IMG/VR virus record: IMGVR_UViG_2529293060_000014
Direction: 5' to 3' (one strand)
DNA length: 41,046 nucleotides
Source: a virus
Taxonomy: Duplodnaviria > Heunggongvirae > Uroviricota > Caudoviricetes
How positions within the stretch are numbered: the first letter of the stretch is position 1; the number at the start of each line of letters is the position of its first letter. Both the position numbers and the translations under genes were made by a program. Shown here piece after piece: positions 698-41,046 of this stretch. The notes beneath the pieces were generated by a model. The model did no database searches. It saw nothing but the letters and a program-made list of their open reading frames with translations, and was not told where the DNA came from.

Positions 698-1060
698 GGG
701 GCTGATTCTGGATTCGACGGGATTTGCGAAACCCAAGGTGCATGCCGAGGGGCGGTTGGCCTCGTAAAAAGCCGCAAAAAATAGTCGCAAACGACGAAAA
801 CTACGCTTTAGCAGCTTAATAACCTGCTTAGAGCCCTCTCTCCCTAGCCTCCGCTCTTAGGACGGGGATCAAGAGAGGTCAAACCCAAAAGAGATCGCGT
901 GGAAGCCCTGCCTGGGGTTGAAGCGTTAAAACTTAATCAGGCTAGTTTGTTAGTGGCGTGTCCGTCCGCAGCTGGCAAGCGAATGTAAAGACTGACTAAG
1001 CATGTAGTACCGAGGATGTAGGAATTTCGGACGCGGGTTCAACTCCCGCCAGCTCCACCA
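698..1060 (+). ncRNA. ssrA: tmRNA (transfer-messenger RNA), 363 nt
   Basis: Begins GGGGCTGATTCTGGATTCGACGGG and ends with the tRNA-like 3' arm GGTTCAACTCCCGCCAGCTCCACCA; length and sequence match E. coli ssrA from memory. Confidence 0.95.
1016..1060. repeat. attL core: 45-bp ssrA 3' end, first copy of direct repeat
   Basis: Identical 45-bp sequence ATGTAGGAATTTCGGACGCGGGTTCAACTCCCGCCAGCTCCACCA recurs at 35716-35760. Confidence 0.85.
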
Positions 1061-3562: not shown

Positions 3563-6500
3563 GCGTCGTATCCCCCCTGATCGCTGTAGTTACTCCTGGC
3601 TTTTGCCTTCAGCCTGCGTTCACGTTCATCAAGCTGGCGGGCCACCTCCCGCGCAATATCCTGCGCACTTTGTCCTGGCTGCGTCTGGATGATGATCTGC
3701 GTCGGTGCCTCAATCCTGTAAACGGGCGGCACAGTGGCTGCGCGACTCACAATTGCTTCTCCACCTTTCGCGGGAAGTGCCAAAGGGTGCAACGGTGGAA
3801 GCTCTGCTGGCGCGGCAGCAACGCCCATCATTCCGGCGACAACCGCAGCCAGTGCAGCGGTATTTCTCCGGCTGGTCACGTTTGCCGGGCCGTTGACAAT
3901 TTCAGGCCCGTTTTCACCGACAATGCCAAACTGCCCGCGCGGGATATACCCGCCGCTGTCATACATCCCCGCAAAGCCATATCCCCATGATGGAAAACCA
4001 CCCGATGGTATCATCACTTTACCGTCTGCATTCACCGTCACAGGTTGCTGACGCGTCACGCTTTCCGGCAGTTTTGCCTTTGCGGCCTCTTTACTGACAA
4101 TGCCAAGTTTCTCCAGTAACCAGGAAACACCGGATTTCAGGGAGTCCAGCGGATGCATAACCATATTCAGCCCTTCCGCCAGTGCCTCCCCGAATCGTCG
4201 CCCCATTGCCGCTGCGCTCTGCAGTTCGGCAGAGGTCGACTTAACGGGCGTCAGCAGATCAGTAAACCAGCCCCACAGCGCCTGTACTTTATCGCCAATC
4301 CACTGAAATACAGGCTTAAGTGGTTCGAATGCTGCACTGACGGGACTAGCCGCCGCTTTGAATCCTTCCACCACGCCACCGAGAAATGCGTTGATGGGTT
4401 GCCAGTATTTCCAGACAACCAGTGCCACACCCGCCAGTGCAGTAACCACAAGACCTATCGGACTGAGCAGAGCACCTAACAGACCAGATATGGCATACAG
4501 GGCAACGCGCAGCATCGCCAGCGGACCGGATGCCAGTACTCGCAGCACCGCGCCTGCGGCAGCCAGTCCACCGCGTAGTGCTGCCAGTGGATTCATAAAC
4601 ATCACAACAACAGCACGTAAACCGGATAATCCAGACCGCAACAGTGCAACCGGCACACCTGCTACAGTTTTCAGGACATTCCCCGTCAGTGATGCCGTGC
4701 GGTGCAAAGACGACAACGGCGCAGTAAGTAAACCCGCTGCGTTGCCCGATGAAGCAAGCCCGCGTCGCAGCAGTGCCAGTGGAGCGCCAGCTAACCAAGA
4801 CAACGCTCTGCTGGTTCGTGTTACTGCTGCCGTAACGGAAGGTAACGTTTTGATACCCAGCACAGAGAATCCCAGACGGATGACTGCCAGCGGCCCCAGC
4901 ACTGCAGCCAGCGCCACCGCTAAGGTGCCGAGGCCTACGGTAACCGCAGCCACAACAGCCGCTACTTTCATCAGTGTGCCTGTCAGTTCCGGGTTAGCTT
5001 CCACCCAGCGGCGCAACGCCCCCGTGATGCTTTTCACCGTGTACAGAATATCCATCAGCGGCTGGCGCAGCGTTTCGCCCAGGCTGCTGAAGGTGTTCTG
5101 CGCTCCGGTTTTGACCAGCAACCACTGAGCAGAAAGTGAGTCTTTGTTGATGTCGGATTCTTTCTGCATGGAACCGAGCGCATCATTGCCCGCTGTCAGT
5201 TTTAGCTGGCGCTGCAGTTCCTGAAGGTTGTTTGCCAGTTTCGCCGCGTCATCACCAAACTCTTTACCAAACAACATGGTCATGGCAGACAGACGCTTGT
5301 CCTGCGGCAGTGCGTTCACCTTCTCCAGCACACGCTGGATAGTTCCCATCGCATCCTTCGTCATCTGCTTTTCAATCACTTCAGGATTGAGTTTCAGCAG
5401 ATTCATCCCTTCAAAGAAACTCTTGCTTTGCATGGTGGCAATGGACAATTCACGCACCATCGCGTTTGCTGCACTGGCTGCAACCTCCGGCGCAGCGCCC
5501 AGTGTCAGAAAGGTGGAACCCAGTGCCGCCGCTTTACGATAATCCAGACGGTCAGCCACACCGCCCAGACGTTGCATCACATCAATGATGTCCGCCCCTT
5601 TCGACATGGCGTTATCATCCAGATAGTTCAGCGCATCGCCGAGCTGTTCAATATTGCGGGTAGGTATTTTGTAGAGCTGGGCGATTTTCCCCAGACTTTC
5701 TGACAGTTCATCCGCTGGCAGCTCAAAGGCTGTTGCCGCCTTTGCTGCCGTACTGGCGAAGGCCAGCAGGTCACGTTTCTGGTCTTCCCAGCTGTCGTCA
5801 GGGTCTGCGACGTTCATGCGCGCACCACCTTCAACCAGTGCAGCGAAGTCCACCGCACCGTTTTCCATCGGCAACTGTTCGCTGGCAGCCTTGATGGCAT
5901 CCTGCATTTCATAAAAACGTGCAGTACGGTTTCCATTATCGTCACGCAGACCATTGACCTGCTTTGCCACACCTTTCATGGCATCTTCCATGCTGGTATA
6001 GCTTTTTACTGCCGCCATCACTGGCGTCCCCATTGCCAGCCCTGCAGCCGTGGTAGTGGCTCCGGCTCCTGCAATACGATCGCGCACCTCCAGCGAACGG
6101 GCATAACTGGCACGCGCCGCATTCATCCTGCGCTGAGCTTCACCCAGTCGCTTCAGCCGCGCCTCCTGTTTCGACAATTCCTGGTTATAACGTGATGTTT
6201 CACGGGCTAAACGGGCAGTTGCTCCCGCATCATCTTTCGCAGAAATTCCCGCCCGGTACAGTTCTGCACGCACAAGCGCCGTTTGCTTCTGCAAATATTT
6301 TTGTTGTTCTTCCAGGCGTTGGACTGCCAGCGTTTGCCGACCTAAAGCCACAAGGTGCCGTTGTGATGGTTGTTCCATCGCCTCCAGCTCAGAGCTAAGC
6401 AAATTAGCCTTCTGTCTGGCATAGTTCAGCCTGTCGCCTAACTTCTTGTTATCGGCCTGCAGCTTGCGAAATTTTTCCAGGCTGTTACCCGCCTGATTGA

Positions 6501-23098: not shown

Positions 23099-24076
23099 CT
23101 AAATCAGAAAGTGACTCATATTAGATCTATAAATATCAGAATTTATCTTAATTTTGCTTATTGACTCAGATATTACATTCATCAGTGAATCATAGTCTTG
23201 ACTAGTGCGCAAGGGATTAGCCAATTCATTATCAACAAGTTGTTGAGTTCCTTCGCAATTAAGTCCCAGTGGATTATCAGCCTTATGCGGTACAACAGCA
23301 AAAATAGGTCTTGCCGCTTTAATAGCAAAATCCGCCTGCGTCATTGTCCCACTATTTTTTGCTGCTTCGATTAGTATCGAAACTGCTGATAAACCTACCT
23401 GGATTCTGTTGCGTTGCACAAATGACTGCTTGAATGCAGGCCTCCCTACAGGATACTCAGAAATCCAAGCCCCACCGTTAGATAAAATTTCATTTGCTAA
23501 TCTAGCATTTTGTTTAGGCTTAGCGCTCTCTAAACCATGAGCTAATACAGCAATTGTTTTAGCACCTGCCTTAAGAGCTGCCTTGTGTGCATTTGTATCA
23601 GTACCAATAGCTAGGCCGCTTACAATCACCACACCTCTTTCACAGATTTTCTTGGTAATTCTCTTCGTAATTTCTTCCCCTGCCATAGAAACTTCACGAG
23701 AACCAACAATTGCAACTCCTGGCATCTCACTAAGAATATTTACGTCCCCCTTCAAATATAACATTGCTGGGGGATTTGGCGTAATTGCTAAACAAATAGG
23801 GTATTTAGCATCTCCAAAAGGAATTGGAACAATCCCCAATGACAAATGCTTGCTCAAATAGTCTTCAGCATTATGCAATGACGCTATAGAAAAGGCGGAT
23901 TTTAAAATCCCGGCTGAATTAACACACTCAACCAATTCATATTCATCGGAAATAATATGGAATGGAATATCGTTAAATAATTTAAGCAACCCTTGTTCTG
24001 ATGCAAGTCTATCAACCTGTACCGATAGACCTAACAATATTTTGAATTGGGAAGGGTGCATTATTTCACTCCTCAT
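23099..24076 (-). CDS. DprA/Smf-like Rossmann-fold protein (ShosA-like putative antitoxin)
   Basis: 325 aa; central VAIVGSREVS...GVVIVSGLAIGTDTNAHKAALKAGAKTIAVLAHGLE...YP...RNRI matches the DprA nucleotide-binding fold; AT-rich; overlaps the upstream PRTase gene by 11 nt. Confidence 0.7.
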   Translation of the reverse strand: MRSEIMHPSQFKILLGLSVQVDRLASEQGLLKLFNDIPFHIISDEYELVECVNSAGILKSAFSIASLHNAEDYLSKHLSLGIVPIPFGDAKYPICLAITPNPPAMLYLKGDVNILSEMPGVAIVGSREVSMAGEEITKRITKKICERGVVIVSGLAIGTDTNAHKAALKAGAKTIAVLAHGLESAKPKQNARLANEILSNGGAWISEYPVGRPAFKQSFVQRNRIQVGLSAVSILIEAAKNSGTMTQADFAIKAARPIFAVVPHKADNPLGLNCEGTQQLVDNELANPLRTSQDYDSLMNVISESISKIKINSDIYRSNMSHFLI

Positions 24077-24635
24077 AATTAGCTGTTTCTAGTAACGCCA
24101 GTGGCAATATTGTCTTTGCGCCTGCATATCTTAACAGATAATAGCACGCCGTCATACTCCCCCCAGTTGTAGTAACATCATCAATAAGGAGAATAACCTT
24201 ATCAGCCACATTGGATGTAACTCCGATTGTTGACATATGATGTTCGACAGAACGATCTCCGCCCCCCTTATGAGCACTCACTACTGTTGTTTTTCTCTGT
24301 AATGATTGGTTATATACAGCATTAGGAAATTTTTTCGCAATATCTTGCGCTATTTTTATTAAAGCTTGAGATACTTTTCCCTCAGCATGAGAAGGAACAA
24401 TTGTTATCTCAAAGGGCACGTCGGTAAAAGCAACCCTACCAATCACATAGCTTTGGAGGCTAGAAGTTAAAAGTTGGGTAAAAATATTAACAGCCTTTGC
24501 ATACCCGGAATTTGAAGCGTCCTTCAAATCCATCATTGCCTTTGAAAGTCTATCCCCGGAACGAGGATTTCGCTCTCCTCGATATCGCCAAGGATGATAT
24601 GTACCGCAAGAGTAAATTTTGATTGGCCCCATCAT
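24066..24635 (-). CDS. phosphoribosyltransferase-domain protein (ShosT-like putative toxin/effector)
   Basis: 189 aa; C-terminal type-I PRTase motif VILLIDDVTTTGGSMTA; AT-rich codon usage unlike the phage core. Confidence 0.7.
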   Translation of the reverse strand: MMGPIKIYSCGTYHPWRYRGERNPRSGDRLSKAMMDLKDASNSGYAKAVNIFTQLLTSSLQSYVIGRVAFTDVPFEITIVPSHAEGKVSQALIKIAQDIAKKFPNAVYNQSLQRKTTVVSAHKGGGDRSVEHHMSTIGVTSNVADKVILLIDDVTTTGGSMTACYYLLRYAGAKTILPLALLETANYEE

Positions 24636-31756: not shown

Positions 31757-32389
31757 ATGTTAAACATCAGAATGGGTTCCGATACGGGAGGTAAAGCAGC
31801 TATTGAGAGGCTGCTTGCGGCTTATGGATTCACAACTAAGCAGGCATTAAGTGAGCACCTGAATGTCTCAAAAAGCACTATGGCAAACAGAGTGTTACGT
31901 GACAGCTTTCCTGCTGACTGGATAATTCAGTGCGCACTAGAAACCGGTGTTTCGTTGCTTTGGTTAGCTACAGGACAGGGAAGCATGAAAGCAGGATCTG
32001 AGACTGAAAAAAGATCTCACAATGAGAACAAACAAGCAATTAAACCGTTATCTAAACTCATAACTCCATCTATTCCTAAAGGAACCTTGGAGAATGGACA
32101 ACTCAGTATTGATGAAGAGATTTTCCTAGACCACAGCATATTACCTGCAAATTATGAAGAATCGATGTTCTTAGAAACCCCTACTGATTGTTATCTCATC
32201 GATAAATCAGTTAAACAAGTCAGCAATGGATTCTGGCTTATCAATATTGATGGAATGATTATTATTGCAAAAATTATGCGGATTCCCGGCAATAAGATTG
32301 TAGTAAATCAAGATGAAGCGTCTTTCGAGTGCTCTGCTGATGATGTGGAAGTTATTGGGCGTGCAGTCAAAGTAATAAAGAGTATCTAA
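31757..32389 (+). CDS. cI: CI immunity repressor (186 CI family)
   Basis: 210 aa; N-terminal HTH; ...CALETG..L.WL.TG.G motif and C-terminal domain resembling 186 CI as recalled. Confidence 0.8.
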   Translation: MLNIRMGSDTGGKAAIERLLAAYGFTTKQALSEHLNVSKSTMANRVLRDSFPADWIIQCALETGVSLLWLATGQGSMKAGSETEKRSHNENKQAIKPLSKLITPSIPKGTLENGQLSIDEEIFLDHSILPANYEESMFLETPTDCYLIDKSVKQVSNGFWLINIDGMIIIAKIMRIPGNKIVVNQDEASFECSADDVEVIGRAVKVIKSI

Positions 32390-32391
32390 AC

Positions 32392-33408
32392 ATGACTGTC
32401 AGAAAACAGCCAAACGGCAAATGGTTGTGTGAGTGCTATCCCAATGGACGCAATGGCAAGCGCGTGCGTAAGCAATTTGCTACGAAAGGAGAAGCCATTG
32501 CTTTTGAAAGCTTCACAATGGAAGAAGTGAATAAAAAACCGTGGCTAGGTGAAAAGGATGATCGGCGACGCCTATCAGAATTAATTGAGCTTTGGTATTC
32601 CCTGTATGGCCAGACACTCGCAGACCCCAAGCGCCTCATGGCGAAACTTAGAATTATCTGTAATGGTCTAGGCGACCCCATCGCCTCAGAACTGACAGCC
32701 GGTGACTTTACAAAATACCGCGAAGCACGGTTAAAAGGCGACGTTCGTAACGAAGACGGCACACTAATGTCGCCAGTAAAACCACGCACGGTGAATCTTG
32801 AGCAACGTAACCTATCATCGGTTTTCGGCACATTGAAAAAACTAGGCCACTGGTCAGCACCAAATCCTCTCGCCGGGCTGCCAACATTTAAAATCGCTGA
32901 GGGGGAACTGGCGTTCCTGACCTCGGAAGAAATTAAACGTCTGCTAGATGCCTGCGCTGATTCTCAAAACCCCAGTCTGCTTTTGATTGCAAAAATATGC
33001 CTGGCCACCGGCGCACGCTGGAGTGAAGCCGAAAACCTGCAGGGCCATCAGTTATCTAAATACCGCATCACTTATACCAAGACGAAGGGCAAGAAAAACC
33101 GCACCGTGCCGATATCTCAAGATCTGTATGACGAACTCCCCAAGAACAGAGGGAAGCTATTCACCCCGTGCAGAAAAGCCTTTGAACGGGCAGTAAAGCG
33201 AGCTGGCATCGAGCTGCCAGAGGGCCAATGCACTCACGTGCTACGTCATACATTCGCCAGTCATTTTATGATGAATGGCGGAAACATACTGGTCCTACGC
33301 GATATTCTGGGCCATGCCGATATAAAAATGACGATGATTTACGCCCACTTTTCGCCGGATCATCTTGAAGATGCAGTTACTAAAAACCCTTTATGCAACT
33401 TAAGATAG
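32392..33408 (+). CDS. int: tyrosine integrase (P2/186 type)
   Basis: 338 aa; C-terminal HVLRHTFASHFMMNGGNILVLRDILGHADIKMTMIYAHF (R-H-R-Y catalytic box); directly downstream of cI. Confidence 0.9.
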   Translation: MTVRKQPNGKWLCECYPNGRNGKRVRKQFATKGEAIAFESFTMEEVNKKPWLGEKDDRRRLSELIELWYSLYGQTLADPKRLMAKLRIICNGLGDPIASELTAGDFTKYREARLKGDVRNEDGTLMSPVKPRTVNLEQRNLSSVFGTLKKLGHWSAPNPLAGLPTFKIAEGELAFLTSEEIKRLLDACADSQNPSLLLIAKICLATGARWSEAENLQGHQLSKYRITYTKTKGKKNRTVPISQDLYDELPKNRGKLFTPCRKAFERAVKRAGIELPEGQCTHVLRHTFASHFMMNGGNILVLRDILGHADIKMTMIYAHFSPDHLEDAVTKNPLCNLR

Positions 33409-33786
33409 AGTAACTTATGAAAATAAACTCAAATTATTTACAAATATAATATTCAGCAGGTTATCCATTCTTATTTAACTCTTCAGACTGAGATTAGATT
33501 TTATTTATAGAATAAGATAATTTCATATCACAAAAAACCTGTAAGCCCTCATCTTTGTTGTATAAAAACATAAAAGACGCCATATTCAAAAAAGTCGAAA
33601 AGCATTGCAATGCAACATTAAAAATAAGCCAATAAAAACCAGTCATTAGAAAATGAAAAAAAACAAAAACATTTTTTATCAAAGCTTCAGTCTGACTACT
33701 AGTTTGACTCTGCAATTAACTATCAAGATGATCAATATTTATTGATCATCTTGAAGTTGCCCTCAGGAAAGATGAGTATAATATTT

Positions 33787-35523
33787 CTACTCAAGAAGAT
33801 ATTCTAACTCATCTTTTATCGGGATAACTTGCTCATAAAGTCGGTGATATGACTTCCCAATTGCGCCTCTGAATTGTATTAACTTTGGTGGCTTGTTACC
33901 TATATTAATAATATGGTCTTGAGCTATACCTGGGTAGGGATCAATAAATACAATTTCAGATATACCTAACTGATAAGCTTTTTTCGCACACAGCTCACAG
34001 GGACTGGCAGTTGTATATAACCTCCCCCCCTGAACGCCAATGCCACCATATTTTGCAAGTTGTAAAAATGCGTTTTCCTCAGCATGTAATGCACGTGTAT
34101 GAACTTGATTACCTTTTTTATCTTTATCAAGATCATTATGTATATCTTTAAAACAATAAGATAAGTTCCTGCCTCTATAAATATCACCAGTTTTATCTAT
34201 CGCCCTAAAATTTAATAGTTTCTCATTAGCTTTAATTCTGAAAGAACTATTATTTCTCTCATAATAACTGTACACTTTTTCATCAAAGTCGTTCATTAGG
34301 CCATCTAGCGATCTCATAGAGCAAGGAATCTGACCGTTGGCGACATCATTCCAACCCACTGATTTTATTGAATTTTCACCATCAGTTACTACAGCTCCCA
34401 CCTGTCTAGATATACAACCAGAGTTTAATTTTACCGTATACGCAACTTGCATAACCCTTTCCATTGCAGTAGGTGTTATCAGACCAGGATGCTTCATCAG
34501 TGCGATGTACCACGCTAATTGTGCTTTTAAAATATTGTCATTATCAAATTCATTTTTTGGGTTAAAAATGTGTATATCTGATAGTTCAATGCATTTAGTT
34601 ACATTTGGATTAGTGAGATGTTTGTAAGAGTTATCACCTTTACCTGACTCTACAGAATCTATTTCCTCTATCTGCTTTTCAGAAAACTTATGTAGTTTCC
34701 GCAAATAGTTTGTTCGATGTTCATCTGGGGCATTTATTGACATTAAATGAAATGCAGAATATCTATCCTTAAAAAATTTTGCTTCATATGGATTTCTAAT
34801 AGCATCTATGACAATTAATGCGTTATCTCTTTTGCTTTTTCTTATTAATTTAATAACCCTATTAATAGTTTCCGGCAAATGAAAAACAGATTTAGGTATA
34901 AACTCTTTATCTTCAAAATCGACTTCAATACGCCCACGGCGTCTAATTGACTTACCTGCTAACTGATAGACTGAAACATATAAATTTGAGTTTATCGCAT
35001 TTAGTTCAGCTTTGAATTCCTTAGTAAATTTTCTAACTAACCTCAAAATTGATATAAATTTATTAATCGTTTTTTCATTAAGCTTCAATTCACTATTATG
35101 ATCAAGCAAATTCTCAATTACATTTTTAAATCTTGTTAAAATGAGATTATCTGAAAATACACCAAAAGTTAATACATTATCTAAATGCTCTTTACTGATA
35201 GATTTATTAGATGATAGAATAAACTCAGAAGCTTCTTCAACTGTTAACATCAAAAGATACGCTGAGATTAGGTCACTCACCTTAATTGAGTAAAAATTTT
35301 CCCAGTGATTTTCTGCGAATTTTTTAACTATATTATAACGATGGACATCCAATCCCTTGTAAAAACCCTGTAATTTACTTACATCAGGGAAGACTGTTTT
35401 TTCGTTTTCAAGAATATTAGCTGTTGTTGTGCAACCAGAACCAGTTCGACCTGTCAAACCGACTAAAATAAACTGCCCATTTTCAAGGAAAAGCTCACTA
35501 ACGAATTTTTTTTCTTTCATCAC
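33787..35523 (-). CDS. P-loop NTPase/kinase + cytidine (dCMP/dCTP) deaminase fusion protein, AvcD / anti-phage dCTP-deaminase-like
   Basis: 578 aa; N-terminal Walker-A-like GLTGRTGSGCTTT (Cys in the usual Lys position); C-terminal zinc-deaminase signature HAEENA...SPCELCAKKA; about 30% GC, unlike the phage core. Confidence 0.6.
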   Translation of the reverse strand: MMKEKKFVSELFLENGQFILVGLTGRTGSGCTTTANILENEKTVFPDVSKLQGFYKGLDVHRYNIVKKFAENHWENFYSIKVSDLISAYLLMLTVEEASEFILSSNKSISKEHLDNVLTFGVFSDNLILTRFKNVIENLLDHNSELKLNEKTINKFISILRLVRKFTKEFKAELNAINSNLYVSVYQLAGKSIRRRGRIEVDFEDKEFIPKSVFHLPETINRVIKLIRKSKRDNALIVIDAIRNPYEAKFFKDRYSAFHLMSINAPDEHRTNYLRKLHKFSEKQIEEIDSVESGKGDNSYKHLTNPNVTKCIELSDIHIFNPKNEFDNDNILKAQLAWYIALMKHPGLITPTAMERVMQVAYTVKLNSGCISRQVGAVVTDGENSIKSVGWNDVANGQIPCSMRSLDGLMNDFDEKVYSYYERNNSSFRIKANEKLLNFRAIDKTGDIYRGRNLSYCFKDIHNDLDKDKKGNQVHTRALHAEENAFLQLAKYGGIGVQGGRLYTTASPCELCAKKAYQLGISEIVFIDPYPGIAQDHIINIGNKPPKLIQFRGAIGKSYHRLYEQVIPIKDELEYLLE

Positions 35524-35715
35524 GTCCCACTTATGAATGTAAGAATATTCAACATATTAATTATAATTTATTAACTCATTTTGTTCTAGATACTTGATGT
35601 AATGGCGGCACTTTGGCGACGGAGCATTAAAAACGCGTAAGACGAGCAAATACAACAAAACACTAACACATTGTTTTTAAATATAAATAGCTGTTTTTAC
35701 TATACTAAAAATGGT

Positions 35716-35760
35716 ATGTAGGAATTTCGGACGCGGGTTCAACTCCCGCCAGCTCCACCA
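35716..35760. repeat. attR core: second copy of the 45-bp ssrA 3' end
   Basis: Identical to 1016-1060; the upstream tmRNA body is absent, so this is a displaced 3' fragment. Confidence 0.85.
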
Positions 35761-35796
35761 CTTTTTAGTTGTTTGAAGTTCAATGAAGTCTACTAA

Positions 35797-35828
35797 GCCC
35801 ACACAGCACAAGCTCTGCGGGCTTTTTT
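35797..35828 (+). terminator. rho-independent terminator after the displaced ssrA 3' fragment
   Basis: GCCCACACAGC-ACAA-GCTCTGCGGGC hairpin followed by TTTTTT; probably the original chromosomal ssrA terminator. Confidence 0.55.
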
Positions 35829-35925
35829 ACGTCTATTGTCGTCCAGTGAGAATTGCTGAGAACTACGAGTTATGGCACCCTGAATGGGACCCACTAAGAA
35901 GGGTCCAAAAACCGAGGGTCCCAAA

Positions 35926-37155
35926 ATGGCAAAAATCGCTAAGAAGCTCACTGACACTGAAATCAAAAGCACCAAGCCAGCCGATAAAGAAATCAACTTG
36001 TTTGACGGTGATGGTCTGATTCTACGAATCGCTCCTTTGGCGAAAGGAGGCAAGAAAAATTGGTATTTCAGGTATGCAGTACCAGTGAGCAAGAAAAGAA
36101 CCAAAATGAGCCTTGGGACATATCCTCACCTTACCCTTGCAAGAGCCAGAGCCTTACGTGATGAATATCTCTCCTTTCTGGCAAATGGTGTTGATCCCCA
36201 AATCCATAACAACGATAAGGCGAAGGCATTAAAGAGTGCTACTGAGCACACTCTCCAAGCCGTAGCGCGGAAATGGTTAGATGAGAAGGTAAAGACATCA
36301 GGTATCTCACAAGACCATGCAGCAGACATCTGGCGCAGCTTAGAGAGAAATGTCTTTCCCGGTCTGGGTAATGTCCCTATCAATGAGATCCGACCTAAGC
36401 TCTTAAAACAACACCTTGATCCTATTGAGCAACGAGGCGTATTGGAAACTCTACGCCGTATCATTTCACGTCTGAATGAAATCTTCCGGTGGGCAGCTAC
36501 TGAAGAACTTATTGAGTTCAACCCGGCTGACAACCTTGGTCAAAGATTCAGTAAACCAAAAAAGCAAAATATGCCTGCCCTTCCCCCAAGCGAATTGCCA
36601 AGGTTTATGGAATCTTTGACGAATGCGTCAATCCGGTTGGAAACACGTATGCTAATTGAATGGCAATTGTTGACATGGGTTCGTCCGGGTGAAGCCGTTC
36701 GCGCAAGGTGGTCTGATATTGATACAACCAACAGCATTTGGAACATTCCTGCTGATTTCATGAAAATGAAAAAGCTTCACAAAGTTCCTTTGAGTAAAGA
36801 AGCTTTGCGCATCCTTGAATTAATGAAATCAATAAGTGGGCATAGAGAATGGGTTTTCCCCAGCATAAAAGCGCCTCTTAATCATATGCATGAACAAACA
36901 GCCAACGCAGCTATCATCCGAATGGGGTTCGGAGGCGAGCTTGTAGCTCACGGTATGCGTTCTATTGCACGAACAGCGGCAGAGGAGTCTGGTAAATTCA
37001 GAGCTGAAGTTCTTGAGGCAGCGCTTGCCCACTCGAAAAAAGATGAAATTATCGCAGCATACAATCGTGCAGAATATCTGATAGAGCGACAGAGTTTGAT
37101 GCAATGGTGGAGTGATTACGTTCAAGCTCAAAGATCAAATGCTCTGGTAGCCTAA
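35926..37155 (+). CDS. intA: P4/CP4-57-type tyrosine integrase
   Basis: Track ORF 35884-37155; start set at MAKIAKKLTDTEIKS by similarity to E. coli IntA (MARKTKPLTDTEIKAAKP...) as recalled; conserved HGMRSIARTAAEE and AYNRAEYL boxes. Confidence 0.85.
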   Translation: MAKIAKKLTDTEIKSTKPADKEINLFDGDGLILRIAPLAKGGKKNWYFRYAVPVSKKRTKMSLGTYPHLTLARARALRDEYLSFLANGVDPQIHNNDKAKALKSATEHTLQAVARKWLDEKVKTSGISQDHAADIWRSLERNVFPGLGNVPINEIRPKLLKQHLDPIEQRGVLETLRRIISRLNEIFRWAATEELIEFNPADNLGQRFSKPKKQNMPALPPSELPRFMESLTNASIRLETRMLIEWQLLTWVRPGEAVRARWSDIDTTNSIWNIPADFMKMKKLHKVPLSKEALRILELMKSISGHREWVFPSIKAPLNHMHEQTANAAIIRMGFGGELVAHGMRSIARTAAEESGKFRAEVLEAALAHSKKDEIIAAYNRAEYLIERQSLMQWWSDYVQAQRSNALVA

Positions 37156-37193
37156 GTATCAGAATAGCTAATATAATCCTGAAGGTAAAGAAA

Positions 37194-37610
37194 ATGGAAA
37201 CCCTATTCAAAGTTTTTGAAAAATTTAGTTCCAGACCACTTTTTTTTATTTTTTTCGGACTCTCACTTTGTGAATTTTTTCAGAAACAATCTGTTCTGAT
37301 GAATCCATCAGCAGATAACATCGCGAAATTATTCGCAGCCATGATATTAGTTGTTTTTTTTACTTGGGGATTTGAATGGCTAATCTTCAAGTTCAATGTA
37401 AACCTTGAACCTCATGATCAAGGCGATATTGGACCAACAATTGGAACGGCTACTTTAGCTGTATACTTAGTTTATGCCTTTCACTTTCTCAGTGAAAATC
37501 CTGAAGCATTAAATTTAAAGTTATTAACTAACTCTGGCTTTATATACAGCACAACTCTATTATTATTCTCATTAGAATGCATGAAGCTTAGAAGACTTAA
37601 ACAAAAATAA
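37194..37610 (+). CDS. hypothetical small integral membrane protein
   Basis: 138 aa with 3-4 predicted hydrophobic helices; AT-rich. Confidence 0.5.
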   Translation: METLFKVFEKFSSRPLFFIFFGLSLCEFFQKQSVLMNPSADNIAKLFAAMILVVFFTWGFEWLIFKFNVNLEPHDQGDIGPTIGTATLAVYLVYAFHFLSENPEALNLKLLTNSGFIYSTTLLLFSLECMKLRRLKQK

Positions 37611-37641
37611 ACAACATCATTGTGATGATAAATATAAAATA

Positions 37642-37670
37642 GGCATGGCGAAAAAAAAATCACCACGCCT
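37642..37670. terminator. hairpin between convergent membrane-protein gene and receiver-domain gene
   Basis: GGCATGGCG-A9-TCACCACGCC imperfect stem-loop. Confidence 0.35.
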
Positions 37671-37682
37671 AAAATATAATAA

Positions 37683-39449
37683 TTATGGTAGCATCATTGA
37701 TACATAATCCACACCAATCCTTGAGCTATACTGAGACGCTATAGCCTGATATCTTTCTGCATAACCAGTTCTCAGTTGAGATTTAAGTTTGAGTCGGACA
37801 GGAACATTTTGCACGTTGCCATCCATATTACTTAAAAACACGGCAGAAATAATATTTTTTTCTTCGCCATCAACTGTTGTTCCATGATTCAACACCACCA
37901 TATAATCAACAACAGGAAGCGTTTTATCCCCTTCGAAAATAGAGAGATATTTTCTTTGATTTTTATGCATTACATATATATATTTCGAATGTTCAGCAAA
38001 TGGCAATGCTTTACTCTGACTGGCGTTAAAAAGCTCCAGAACTTTAATGAGCCTGTGCGGACTTAATCTTACATGGTGAGGGTCGTTACCCTGAGTAGGA
38101 ACCAAATCACATGCCGCAGATACACATAAATACCATTTGTTCGACTCTGTATCAAAGAAAATAGTGCCAGTAGAAATATGACCATCTTCAAAATTCTTTG
38201 AAGACAAATTCATATTTAAAGCATGATACATTTCGTGATAAGTATCATTATTTGATGGCAGATCCATTTTTGAAGAGCAATATTGGAGCAATGCAGCAAC
38301 TCCGCTGTTAGCGTATTCATTTGAATAGCTATCAAAAACACTTTTGATAAATTCATCCAGCGTATTATTATTTTTAAGTCTTTGATAAAGCTCTTCTGAT
38401 AAATTACCAAATACAAAGTCAATATTTCTACATCTAATATCAGGCGAGTCTGATTTTAATATCTCATTTAACCACGCAGCTTGACCGTAATGATCGTTAG
38501 CCAAATGATTTACAAAAGATAAAGCCTCAGCTTCGATTGCATTCTGAATTTCAGATTTTATTAACTGATAATAAGATGGTTTCCATTCAATGAGAGAATC
38601 ATTGAGAGTTTGCCAAATCCTATCTCCATCGTTTTCATGATCATCTTGAACCTTATGAAATAGGGAGACAAAGATATTACCACATTGAATCCATTTTACT
38701 CCGCTTTCATCACCCCGAATGACATTGCCAGATGTGTTGCTAGAAATAATTGCATTTCTAGACACAGCATATTCTGCAATCATTTTTGCAATGAAGTTTT
38801 TATCCTTTTGATCCTCCAACACAGCATCATCATGTATTAATCTTTTAATTCTTCTACAAGGCTTACTGTCTTTAATATAGGCTATTGTTTCATCTCTTGT
38901 GAGAGCTTTATTACCATTATCATTTAAGTTCGGTAATACAACGTCTTCCCAATAACTTTGGACATCTTCATTATCGTAGTCAATGATCAAGCTGTTGATA
39001 TCCAGAGCACCTTTGAGAGTCGATGATATCTGCATCCAAACCGTTTCTAAATTCTCTCTAGTATATATTACAATCATATTTAAATGATCGGAGTCTTTCA
39101 AATCTTGTAATAGTTTAAGTGTTTTATCAGGTGCATTATTATCAAGATGATAATCTACAATAATAAGATCTGATTTTCTAATCCGATCCACATCGAAATT
39201 AACAGAACCATTGTCAACATCACAAATCATATTTTTAGATTGAAAAAAGCTCTCAAGAGTAGCGGCTCGTTTAGATGAGTCAATTTTGTTGTAGTCTAAA
39301 TCAACTTCGTTATTCAACGCCCTGATTGATTCAGAATACGTCAGAAAATCGTCATCAATCATGACAACGGAACGAATTGCATTTTCGCAGAAAGTTTTCT
39401 GGACAAGAGAATTATAATTTGCCACTGTCATATTAGAACTCCACTCCAT
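37683..39449 (-). CDS. receiver (REC)-domain protein with large uncharacterised C-terminal output domain
   Basis: 588 aa; N-terminus has CheY-like landmarks (VVMIDDDF acidic pocket, IIVDYHL candidate phospho-acceptor Asp, MIVIYT); remaining ~440 aa match no family I recognise; start overlaps the upstream kinase stop by 17 nt. Confidence 0.6.
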   Translation of the reverse strand: MEWSSNMTVANYNSLVQKTFCENAIRSVVMIDDDFLTYSESIRALNNEVDLDYNKIDSSKRAATLESFFQSKNMICDVDNGSVNFDVDRIRKSDLIIVDYHLDNNAPDKTLKLLQDLKDSDHLNMIVIYTRENLETVWMQISSTLKGALDINSLIIDYDNEDVQSYWEDVVLPNLNDNGNKALTRDETIAYIKDSKPCRRIKRLIHDDAVLEDQKDKNFIAKMIAEYAVSRNAIISSNTSGNVIRGDESGVKWIQCGNIFVSLFHKVQDDHENDGDRIWQTLNDSLIEWKPSYYQLIKSEIQNAIEAEALSFVNHLANDHYGQAAWLNEILKSDSPDIRCRNIDFVFGNLSEELYQRLKNNNTLDEFIKSVFDSYSNEYANSGVAALLQYCSSKMDLPSNNDTYHEMYHALNMNLSSKNFEDGHISTGTIFFDTESNKWYLCVSAACDLVPTQGNDPHHVRLSPHRLIKVLELFNASQSKALPFAEHSKYIYVMHKNQRKYLSIFEGDKTLPVVDYMVVLNHGTTVDGEEKNIISAVFLSNMDGNVQNVPVRLKLKSQLRTGYAERYQAIASQYSSRIGVDYVSMMLP

Positions 39450-39818
39450 TGAACTGGATCACAAAATTAGCGCCATCTTTTATTAAATAGTTATCGCCTT
39501 CATCAGGTTCTGAATACCATATTTTATGATGTGCAACAGCAAGGTTTTCTCGACATAGATACAGACCTACCCCATGTCCATTTGCTCTTTTGCTATAAAA
39601 TAGTTCAAATAGTCGCGGGATATCATCGGTATCAATTGCCGGACCAGAATTTGCTATGATAACCAAAGAATTCACAAAACCAATCTTTATGAGCCTATTA
39701 TTTGACAGACTGACCCAATACATTGCATTGTTGATAATATTAGTAAAAACAGGATAGATCCTTGATGGTATATCTGTTATTGCGATTTGCTTAAACTCTT
39801 CACTAAATTCAATAGTTA
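39433..39818 (-). pseudogene. sensor histidine kinase, 3' fragment only (5' part interrupted by IS3)
   Basis: Encodes a HATPase_c catalytic domain (N-box NIINNAMYW, G1 ANSGPAID, F-box FELFY, G2 GHGVGLYLCRENL); the frame runs without a start into the IS3 terminal repeat at 39819. Confidence 0.65.
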
Positions 39819-39883
39819 TGATCTTACCCAGCAATAGTGGACACGCGGCTAAGTGAGTAAACTCTCAGTCAGAGGTGACTCAC

Positions 39884-40183
39884 ATGACAAAAACAGTATC
39901 AACCAGTAAAAAACCCCGTAAACAGCATTCGCCTGAATTTCGCAGTGAAGCCCTGAAGCTTGCTGAACGCATCGGTGTTACTGCCGCAGCCCGTGAACTC
40001 AGCCTGTATGAATCACAGCTCTACAACTGGCGCAGTAAACAGCAAAATCAGCAGACGTCTTCTGAACGTGAACTGGAGATGTCTACCGAGATTGCACGTC
40101 TCAAACGCCAGCTGGCAGAACGGGATGAAGAGCTGGCTATCCTCCAAAAGGCCGCGACATACTTCGCGAAGCGCCTGAAATGA
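39884..40183 (+). CDS. insE: IS3 transposase OrfA
   Basis: 99 aa from ATG at 39884 (the track begins at an upstream GTG); HTH-containing IS3-family OrfA. Confidence 0.85.
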
Positions 40184-41046
40184 AGTATGTCTTTATTGAA
40201 AAACATCAGGCTGAGTTCAGCATCAAAGCAATGTGCCGCGTGCTCCGGGTGGCCCGCAGCGGCTGGTATACGTGGTGTCAGCGGCGGACAAGGATAAGCA
40301 CGCGTCAGCAGTTCCGCCAACACTGCGACAGCGTTGTCCTCGCGGCTTTTACCCGGTCAAAACAGCGTTACGGTGCCCCACGCCTGACGGATGAACTGCG
40401 TGCTCAGGGTTACCCCTTTAACGTAAAAACCGTGGCGGCAAGCCTGCGCCGTCAGGGACTGAGGGCAAAGGCCTCCCGGAAGTTCAGCCCGGTCAGCTAC
40501 CGCGCACACGGCCTGCCTGTGTCAGAAAATCTGTTGGAGCAGGATTTTTACGCCAGTGGCCCGAACCAGAAGTGGGCAGGAGACATCACGTACTTACGTA
40601 CAGATGAAGGCTGGCTGTATCTGGCAGTGGTCATTGACCTGTGGTCACGTGCCGTTATTGGCTGGTCAATGTCGCCACGCATGACGGCGCAACTGGCCTG
40701 CGATGCCCTGCAGATGGCGCTGTGGCGGCGTAAGAGGCCCCGGAACGTTATCGTTCACACGGACCGTGGAGGCCAGTACTGTTCAGCAGATTATCAGGCG
40801 CAACTGAAGCGGCATAATCTGCGTGGAAGTATGAGCGCAAAAGGTTGCTGCTACGATAATGCCTGCGTGGAAAGCTTCTTTCATTCGCTGAAAGTGGAAT
40901 GTATCCATGGAGAACACTTTATCAGCCGGGAAATAATGCGGGCAACGGTGTTTAATTATATCGAATGTGATTACAATCGGTGGCGGCGGCACAGTTGGTG
41001 TGGCGGCCTCAGTCCGGAACAATTTGAAAACAAGAACCTCGCTTAG
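40180..41046 (+). CDS. insF: IS3 transposase OrfB (DDE catalytic domain), normally expressed as an OrfAB frameshift fusion
   Basis: 288 aa with the rve-type integrase core; ATG overlaps the orfA stop. Confidence 0.85.

Follow-up and report, generated by a model that had tools for sequence, protein, structure and literature searches.

The stretch of DNA analysed here (the window, 41,046 nucleotides) carries a 34.7-kb P2/186-like prophage integrated in ssrA. Its ends are marked by a perfect 45-bp direct repeat: the attL core (positions 1016–1060, plus strand) forms the 3′ end of an intact tmRNA gene (698–1060), and the attR core (35716–35760, plus strand) is a copy of the last 45 nt of ssrA and coincides with a partial Rfam match to tmRNA (35690–35760). 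CI, int and CII-type neighbours were found in the prophage, and Escherichia phage Cartapus (Peduoviridae) is 95% identical over 81% of a queried 24.4-kb segment (9000–33400). The tyrosine integrase (32392–33408, plus strand; Pfam Int_N and Phage_integrase), which RefSeq labels 'site-specific integrase' in identical loci, is convergent with the gene that concerns us here, which lies on the minus strand between the integrase and attR. This gene (33787–35520; stop codon at 33787–33789) encodes 577 amino acids from an ATG at 35520, the start that was chosen in the RefSeq annotation; the open reading frame as listed (33787–35523) begins at an alternative GTG one codon upstream (35523) and would give a product of 578 amino acids. 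The coding sequence has a GC content of 32.8%; the structural core reaches 55% and the remaining prophage 51.8%. The initial annotation of this DNA had described AT-rich cargo between the integrase and attR of an att-bounded prophage, and the repeat, the integrase and the base composition bear this out.

With 4,688 homologues of the protein at E ≤ 1e-10, the open reading frame is not a product of chance. An identical protein is present in NCBI as 'anti-phage dCTP deaminase [Escherichia coli]', the deaminase occurs at the same locus in 20 of 5,426 complete E. coli genomes (identity of 96–99.8%), and IMG/VR viral contigs also carry the gene, some of them in a form that is 100% identical. The protein scores 422.5 bits against the NCBIfam equivalog NF041025 (curated cut-off of 400 bits) and covers the profile from end to end (positions 1–437 of 437). 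The PADLOC dCTPase model matches it with an E value of 8.1e-145 and 482 bits; the validated protein of E. coli AW1.7 (WP_045268677.1) scores 496 bits. To this last enzyme, which was tested by Tal et al. (preprint 10.1101/2021.04.26.441389, later Nat Microbiol 2022), it is 72% identical (85% positives) over the full length of 577 residues. The proposal that the protein is a P-loop/zinc-deaminase fusion of the anti-phage dCTP-deaminase family is thus upheld by both family models, and also by end-to-end alignment with a characterised dCTP deaminase. We consider it very probable that the P2/186-like ssrA prophage carries, as a moron, a single-gene member of the anti-phage dCTP-deaminase family of Tal et al. 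The gene is intact, the system is already known and RefSeq already names the gene; that the prophage allele itself deaminates dCTP and defends against phages we infer by analogy with its relatives.

The two domains are both recognizable. In the numbering of the 577-residue form, which is used for all motifs here, residues ~1–345 (34486–35520, minus strand) make up an N-terminal nucleoside-monophosphate-kinase-like (P-loop) domain and residues ~350–577 (33790–34473, minus strand) a C-terminal zinc-dependent dCMP/dCTP-deaminase domain, which is interrupted by an insertion of ~75 residues at roughly 403–475. The predicted structure has an NMP-kinase fold at the N terminus and a dCMP/dCTP-deaminase fold at the C terminus; Pfam matches are strong for the deaminase (dCMP_cyt_deam_1, E = 1.4e-14) and weak for the P-loop (AAA_18, E = 0.04). 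Pfam and the predicted structure together give the AvcD-type architecture, a fusion of a P-loop-kinase-like domain with a dCMP deaminase. The zinc-deaminase signature named in the initial annotation can be read directly from the sequence, with the catalytic H479-A480-E481 at 34078–34086 and the zinc ligands in P507-C508-E-L-C511 at 33988–34002 (both minus strand), and both motifs are invariant in family alignments. The non-canonical Walker A that had been singled out is also present, as the GSGC at residues 27–30 of the P-loop G24-R-T-G-S-G29-C30-T31 (35428–35451, minus strand), in which C30 occupies the usual Lys position of G24-x4-G29-C30-T31. This Cys is, however, not peculiar to the present copy, as it is invariant in sets of 13 and of 42 aligned homologues and is found in nearly all of the ~70 loci that were read. 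In the AW1.7 enzyme, the substitutions G29A and C30A abolish defence (10.1101/2021.04.26.441389). Counterparts of the AW1.7 residues G29, C30, C370 and C401 are all found here, the last two as C369 and C400; the two proteins (577 and 576 residues long) share their two domains, the G29-C30 P-loop and the cysteines that were mutated in that work.

A metabolic role has to be weighed against defence, in which the protein would be a dCMP deaminase like Cd of T4 that serves the replication of the prophage itself. Among proteins of solved structure, dCMP deaminases from phages and from cells are closest in sequence, and the cd genes of T4-like phages are weak tblastn matches; however, these matches span residues 358–530 only, with ~29% identity, whereas the protein is linked to the defence enzyme by its fused kinase-like domain, which has the C30 P-loop, and by 72% identity over the full length. 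The setting of the gene also argues against such a role, as it lies outside the replication module in a variable cargo slot, has a foreign base composition and a putative promoter of its own, and is absent from most relatives of the prophage. We regard a metabolic function as extremely improbable.

Between the integrase and the deaminase stop codon lie 378 nt of AT-rich DNA (33409–33786). Part of this (33419–33605, plus strand) is a frameshifted remnant of a gene for a 208-residue membrane protein; in the versions of the prophage from Siccibacter and Citrobacter, this gene is intact and directly follows int. The remnant was recognized both by tblastn with the 208-residue product of one locus (L089; residues 2–32 and 50–65, ~50% identity, E = 2.6e-4) and by blastn (77–78% over ~205–224 nt, including part of the 3′ end of int). 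Closer to the deaminase, 34 nt past its stop codon, is a palindrome (33724–33753) with perfect 13-bp arms (CAAGATGATCAAT and ATTGATCATCTTG) and a 4-nt centre, which dominates the predicted fold of 33409–33786 (z = −2.1). As it has no T-run, the palindrome was not called by a terminator scan; it is probably a transcription stop or a buffer that separates the convergent genes. We also considered 33409–33786 as an RNA locus and rejected it, since it consists of the pseudogene remnant and the palindrome and is missing from the other alleles.

Upstream of the deaminase, the non-coding stretch extends over 195 nt from the ATG to attR (35521–35715); the initial annotation had counted it from the GTG (35524–35715). 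It has two parts of different origin. The 114 nt next to the att core (35602–35715) constitute an arm of the phage attachment site, with repeated TCGCCA and GCCGCCA that are presumed to be Int arm sites; this arm is kept in all four deaminase alleles that occupy the slot, and it also occurs in prophages with unrelated cargo (in strains C2 and WP3-S18-ESBL-09). The other part (35521–35601, minus strand, ~81 nt) is specific to the deaminase. It is strongly conserved where the same allele occurs in Siccibacter and Citrobacter prophages, and similarity to another slot allele ends 83 nt ahead of the ATG. In a blastn comparison (word sizes of 7–9) of 35521–35920 against the DNA upstream of the gene at 75 family loci, only the att arm was matched.

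The deaminase-specific part is likely to comprise a sigma-70 promoter and a 5′ leader of ~33 nt. It contains a perfect −10 hexamer, TATAAT (35560–35565, minus strand; 45–40 nt before the ATG), with a weak −35 element, and the hexamer is TATAAT in Siccibacter and Citrobacter and TATACT in the TW10598 allele. The number of matches in a promoter scan did not exceed that in shuffled sequence, and none fell within the upstream region, including the att arm, so the promoter call is based on the conservation of TATAAT across species; because the site falls under the −35 threshold of the scan, we infer its function. The same compact layout, with a promoter and a leader of ~40 nt, is conserved in eight AW1.7-type loci.

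Also related to this family are the AvcID (DcdV-DifV) systems of Vibrio cholerae VSP-1, Vibrio parahaemolyticus, Proteus mirabilis and the enterotoxigenic E. coli (ETEC) strain H10407 (Hsueh, Severin et al.); AvcD/DcdV is assigned to the 'dCTP deaminase' family of Tal et al. These proteins likewise join P-loop-kinase-like and dCMP-deaminase domains, and the proposed activity and trigger are the same as for the prophage deaminase. The residues reported for V. cholerae AvcD (S52, E384 and C411/C414; preprint 10.1101/2021.03.31.437871) show that the Walker A Lys is replaced in both proteins (S52 and C30) and that 27 residues separate the catalytic Glu from the first zinc Cys in both (E384 and C411; E481 and C508). 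The published numbering also indicates that V. cholerae AvcD (VC0175; 60.6 kDa when His-tagged) is a shorter and more distant protein, with ~119 fewer residues between the P-loop and the catalytic Glu as calculated from those numbers. The AvcD label therefore rests on shared architecture and family models and not on close identity. V. cholerae AvcD was absent from the results of a representative-genome scan with two family-conserved peptides as the query, and on the H10407 chromosome avcD, which has no DNA-level similarity to the prophage gene, was not located by four family DNA queries.

In AvcID, the deaminase is paired with an RNA (AvcI or DifV) that is encoded 5′ of avcD in the same orientation, of which at least 152–174 nt are needed and whose transcript is ~280 nt long (10.1101/2021.03.31.437871; PMC10511110). 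The initial annotation had pointed to 35524–35715 as a candidate location for such an RNA, and itself flagged this location as unconfirmed. On this reading the locus would be a complete AvcID-type type III toxin–antitoxin pair, in which an RNA from 35521–35715, co-oriented with the gene and either encoded in part by the att arm or constituting a long 5′ leader, would silence the deaminase by binding it until host transcription ceases. There is barely enough room, as 195 nt would just accommodate the minimal AvcI of 152–174 nt. Missing homology does not count against such an RNA, given that the 5′ regions that neutralize the enzyme in V. cholerae, V. parahaemolyticus, P. mirabilis and ETEC share no sequence similarity with each other (10.1101/2021.03.31.437871); and where the family occurs outside P2 prophages, the non-coding DNA upstream of the gene is never shorter than 417 nt. 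However, 35602–35715 is common to prophages with unrelated cargo and is thus not a deaminase-specific partner, and the DNA that travels with the gene amounts to ~81 nt only, within which the conserved TATAAT leaves a leader of ~33 nt. Otherwise near-identical copies differ by an 11-nt indel directly after the −10 hexamer. The upstream stretch folds no better than shuffled sequences on either strand (z = +0.92 and +0.65), Rfam recognizes no family in it other than the ssrA fragment, and the att arm contains no promoter-like site called by the scan. The other three slot alleles are similarly confined, with ~95–115 nt of specific upstream DNA each, compared with the AvcID RNA, which sits in an intergenic region of 504 nt.

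Judged from the sequence, we found no co-transcribed 5′ RNA gene of at least 152–174 nt, and an AvcI-type RNA of at least 150 nt would not fit into the deaminase-specific DNA. The proposed RNA in 35524–35715 thus gained no support, and we consider a complete AvcID-type pair at this locus unlikely. An Rfam match to IsrM at 35751–35828 was dismissed, because its 53 bits lie below the gathering score of 376 and it reflects only the terminator flank of ssrA. At AW1.7, the gene is preceded by 524 nt of non-coding DNA with an element of ~150 nt upstream of the promoter, which is found in five of eight relatives and is absent from the prophage copy. Considered as a possible equivalent of AvcI, this element yielded no persuasive common fold in RNAalifold (−9.6 kcal/mol; covariation term, −0.76), and because it is missing from three of the eight loci we did not treat it as one. 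The conserved upstream blocks of other lineages are not tRNA genes, and the only Rfam match among them was one unrelated tRNA.

The single-gene dCTP deaminase, our preferred reading, suggests the following mode of action. In the lysogen, a compact sigma-70 promoter belonging to the gene itself (TATAAT at 35560–35565) would drive transcription of the deaminase, with a leader of ~33 nt. By analogy with relatives, the arrest of host transcription by a lytic superinfecting phage would activate the enzyme, as transcription shut-off does in the case of AvcD (PMC10511110). It would then convert dCTP, and probably also dCMP, to dUTP and dUMP; the collapse of the deoxycytidine nucleotide pool would stall phage DNA replication and lead to defective particles. 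When present with its own promoter, the cloned AW1.7 gene confers phage defence and dCTP depletion, and both are lost in kinase-motif and deaminase mutants (10.1101/2021.04.26.441389). Both domains would accordingly be required in the homologous prophage enzyme, with the chemistry carried out by the zinc deaminase (H479, E481, C508 and C511). Activity would also depend on the NMP-kinase-like domain, whose G29-C30 P-loop is specific to the family; this domain most likely serves as a nucleotide-binding or regulatory module and not as a true kinase.

The AW1.7 copy and the prophage copy are similar in context as well as in sequence. Each consists of one AT-rich gene that adjoins an integrase on a mobile element and has a compact promoter and a short leader, although the AW1.7 copy is in a tRNA-Phe island and the present one in a P2-like prophage. 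The contents of the slot between int and att vary among otherwise similar prophages: it is occupied by four diverged alleles of the deaminase in some and by a cargo of two genes or of one gene in others. Similarly AT-rich cargo is known from the defence hotspots of P2-like phages (Rousset et al. 2022, PMC9122126; PMC13586616, NAR 2026), among which the integrase–att interval is a minor one, with 3% of P2 systems (PMC13586616). The term dCTP deaminase does not occur in the main text of either paper; that four diverged deaminase alleles occupy this slot is shown by the genome comparison made here. A Shosta-like pair lies in the same prophage at the classic portal/gpA hotspot, which would make this a prophage with two defence systems, the dCTP deaminase at the int–att edge and the Shosta-like pair at portal/gpA.

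The four alleles, each with ~81–115 nt of upstream DNA of its own that would comprise a promoter and a short leader, raise the possibility that the int–att-slot deaminases of P2/186-like prophages function independently of any AvcI-type antitoxin RNA. We put this forward tentatively, as somewhat short of an even chance. If all family members need an RNA antitoxin, this is a locus without an obvious one, which would leave it unexplained that the lysogen tolerates the enzyme. If the slot deaminases do work without one, something else would have to keep them inactive, be it auto-inhibition via the kinase-like domain, a host factor or the leader of their own mRNA, and the RNA antitoxin would be an accessory of some lineages and not a defining part of the system. 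Four diverged alleles in one slot, all with very short private upstream DNA, constitute a natural test of the need for an RNA antitoxin in AvcD-family enzymes.

The deaminase gene between the integrase gene and attR is a known defence gene, already named in RefSeq, and was correctly recognized in the initial annotation. Its description there as an AT-rich gene within a prophage, encoding a P-loop and HAE/PCxxC deaminase motifs, is confirmed by the open reading frame, the motif positions, the GC content and the att repeat. In the ORF listing of the window, the longest form spans 33787–35523 on the minus strand, and the ATG at 35520 is the RefSeq start, which gives a protein of 577 aa. Reading this protein places GSGC at residues 27–30, HAE at 479–481 and PCELC at 507–511. 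The GC content of the coding sequence is 32.8%, compared with 55% in the prophage structural core. Pfam detects a dCMP/cytidine deaminase domain (1.4e-14) and gives only a faint match to the P-loop; the PADLOC dCTPase model matches at 8.1e-145, and the score for NF041025, a curated NCBI equivalog named ‘anti-phage dCTP deaminase’, is 422.5 bits (cut-off, 400 bits). NCBI holds an identical entry under the name anti-phage dCTP deaminase, and the gene is present at the same locus, with the same annotation, in 20 of 5,426 complete E. coli genomes (96–99.8% identity). The family is large (4,688 matches at E ≤ 1e-10) and extends to viral contigs, some of them with 100% identity.

The experimentally characterized family member is the enzyme of E. 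coli AW1.7, to which the window protein is 72% identical over its full length. Cloned with its own promoter, the 576-aa AW1.7 protein confers resistance to several phages and depletes dCTP, and defence is lost with G29A or C30A in the kinase-like motif and with C370A or C401A in the deaminase domain (10.1101/2021.04.26.441389); all four positions are conserved in the window protein. The cysteine at the Walker-A lysine position, initially noted as non-canonical, is indeed present but is not peculiar to this protein. Alignments of 13 and of 42 homologues show it as invariant, and nearly every locus read, from Proteobacteria, Firmicutes and Bacteroidetes, has it; given this invariance and the loss of defence in the mutants, it is a family hallmark. 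The relationship to V. cholerae AvcD, which we compared by published residue numbers (S52, E384 and C411/C414; 10.1101/2021.03.31.437871), is one of common architecture and a shared family model, not of close identity. The spacing from Glu to Cys is 27 residues in both proteins, whereas V. cholerae AvcD has about 119 fewer residues from the P-loop to the catalytic Glu, and we therefore place the window protein in the long ‘Tal-type’ branch. Four family queries did not locate avcD in the ETEC H10407 chromosome at the DNA level, and no solved structure was found for any full-length relative. An unnamed divergent member of the family occurs in E. coli SF-468 (locus L088, 1993–3771), where a 592-aa protein annotated only as ‘hypothetical’ shares 38% identity with the window protein and retains GRTGSGC, HAEE and PCELC (PADLOC dCTPase, 5e-127); its gene lies in another prophage, adjoining tail-fibre genes.

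The last 45 nt (1016–1060) of the tmRNA gene ssrA, detected at 698–1060, are perfectly repeated at 35716–35760, where Rfam also gives a partial tmRNA match. Because the tmRNA 3′ end is perfectly repeated, the 34.7 kb between the repeats is identified as a prophage inserted in ssrA. The queried 24.4-kb segment (9000–33400) is 95% identical over 81% of its length to Escherichia phage Cartapus (Peduoviridae). The prophage carries a CI repressor (31757–32389) and a tyrosine integrase (int; 32392–33408), and in equivalent RefSeq loci the repressor has annotated CII-family and Rha-family regulators as neighbours, with Fil further along in two; together with the Cartapus identity, this content identifies a P2/186-like phage. 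The deaminase gene lies between int and attR and is convergent with int. Four deaminase alleles occupy this slot in E. coli ssrA prophages: the window type, TW10598 (74% identical to the window protein), and 600468 and EC5502 (about 75% identity at the DNA level). The last three lie 9–13 bp from int. Altogether, 38 of the 5,426 genomes have a member whose DNA can be aligned to at least 80% of the query. A survey of P2-like prophages describes the integrase–att interval as a minor defence hotspot, with 3% of P2 systems (PMC13586616). The 378 nt between the deaminase and int stops were considered and rejected as an RNA locus; they contain a frameshifted remnant (33419–33605, plus strand) of a gene for a predicted 208-aa membrane protein and a palindrome with perfect 13-bp arms and a 4-nt centre (33724–33753) that dominates the fold. 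In the Siccibacter and Citrobacter forms of the prophage, an intact copy of the 208-aa gene follows closely after int (L089, Siccibacter colletis, 4874–5500), and its product in L089 has no Pfam or PADLOC family.

On the other side of the gene, an AvcI-type antitoxin RNA had been suggested at 35524–35715. In described AvcID systems, the DifV/AvcI RNA is encoded directly 5′ of the deaminase gene, shares its orientation and is co-transcribed with it, with a minimal active length of 152–174 nt within a 504-nt intergenic region (10.1101/2021.03.31.437871) and a transcript of about 280 nt on Northern blots (PMC10511110). Known AvcI RNAs have no sequence common to one another (10.1101/2021.03.31.437871), so that a divergent RNA could be envisaged here. 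The distance from the ATG to the att core is only 195 nt. The segment 35602–35715, with repeated TCGCCA/GCCGCCA motifs, is conserved in all aligned prophages at the same ssrA site, even in strains C2 and WP3-S18-ESBL-09, in which the slot holds two unrelated genes and a different single gene, respectively, and is best taken for an arm of the phage attachment site rather than a partner of the deaminase. This leaves about 81 nt (35521–35601) of deaminase-specific upstream DNA, and each of the four slot alleles has only about 81–115 nt of its own. On neither strand does the 195-nt region fold better than its shuffled versions (z = +0.92 and +0.65); Rfam yields nothing besides the ssrA fragment, and comparison with the upstream regions of 75 other family loci revealed no similarity. 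The small RNA is thus not supported in this interval, and the P2-borne alleles have too little private DNA for an AvcI-sized RNA, which is the only modestly new point of this analysis. In WP3-S18-ESBL-09 (L100, 3489–3665), a 177-nt RefSeq ‘ssrA tmRNA’ consists of the att arm and the duplicated 45-nt core at attR of a related prophage; the att duplication has led to a spurious annotation here.

The 81-nt stretch instead resembles a promoter and short leader. The same allele occurs in Siccibacter and Citrobacter prophages (88–89% protein identity), and there the stretch is strongly conserved around two blocks, a perfect TATAAT 45–40 nt 5′ of the ATG and the last ~30 nt ahead of the start codon, with an 11-nt indel directly after the −10. 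The same layout recurs in eight AW1.7-type loci of various genera and settings, where an invariant TTGA...-17-...ATAAT promoter about 75–45 nt 5′ of the ATG is followed by a short leader. The weak −35 kept the TATAAT site from being called in a simple promoter scan; we therefore infer the promoter from conservation. Just upstream of the deaminase promoter, five of the eight AW1.7-type loci, from different genera, share about 150 nt of conserved non-coding sequence (L082 of AW1.7, 4170–4345; also L007, L093, L095 and L099) that is absent from the other three and from all P2-slot alleles and has neither an Rfam match nor a convincing consensus fold. In these loci an AATCAA-N8-TTGATT inverted repeat overlaps the −35 and looks like an operator.

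The prophage carries other cargo. A Shosta-like pair on the minus strand (23099–24635) occupies the classic P2 portal/gpA hotspot, which has a low GC content (0.40), and comprises a DprA-like ShosA (23099–24076; PADLOC 2.6e-70, Pfam DNA_processg_A) and a phosphoribosyltransferase, ShosT (24066–24635; PADLOC 2.7e-18); with the dCTP deaminase, this makes a prophage with two defence systems. Just inside attL, a 160-aa plus-strand ORF (1184–1666) with weak matches to BRCT (Pfam E = 0.0011) and PDC-S48 (PADLOC 1.8e-07) lies in a lower-GC stretch (0.43) and may be further cargo. Directly beyond attR is a second island (35884–41046) that encodes a P4/IntA-type integrase (35884–37155), a 138-aa protein with no domain match (37194–37610), a 588-aa Response_reg_2 (PF19192) protein (37683–39449, minus strand) and a 133-aa HATPase_c fragment (39433–39834, minus strand), apparently truncated by an IS3-family element (39875–41046). 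The trio of integrase, small protein and response-regulator receiver recurs adjoining ssrA in other E. coli (L003, L083, L084 and L100) and has no clear PADLOC match. Siccibacter likewise has an additional defence system next to the ssrA site: the DNA past attR of the corresponding prophage (L089, 1–1384) encodes a Septu PtuA-like ATPase (PADLOC 2e-160) and then an HNH protein.

Our direct observations concern family membership, folds, the conserved catalytic and P-loop residues, the position in the prophage and the makeup of the flanks. By analogy with characterized relatives, the enzyme would be made in the lysogen and activated by the shut-off of host transcription that an infecting phage brings about; it would then convert dCTP, and probably also dCMP, to dU forms, so that phage DNA synthesis would fail.
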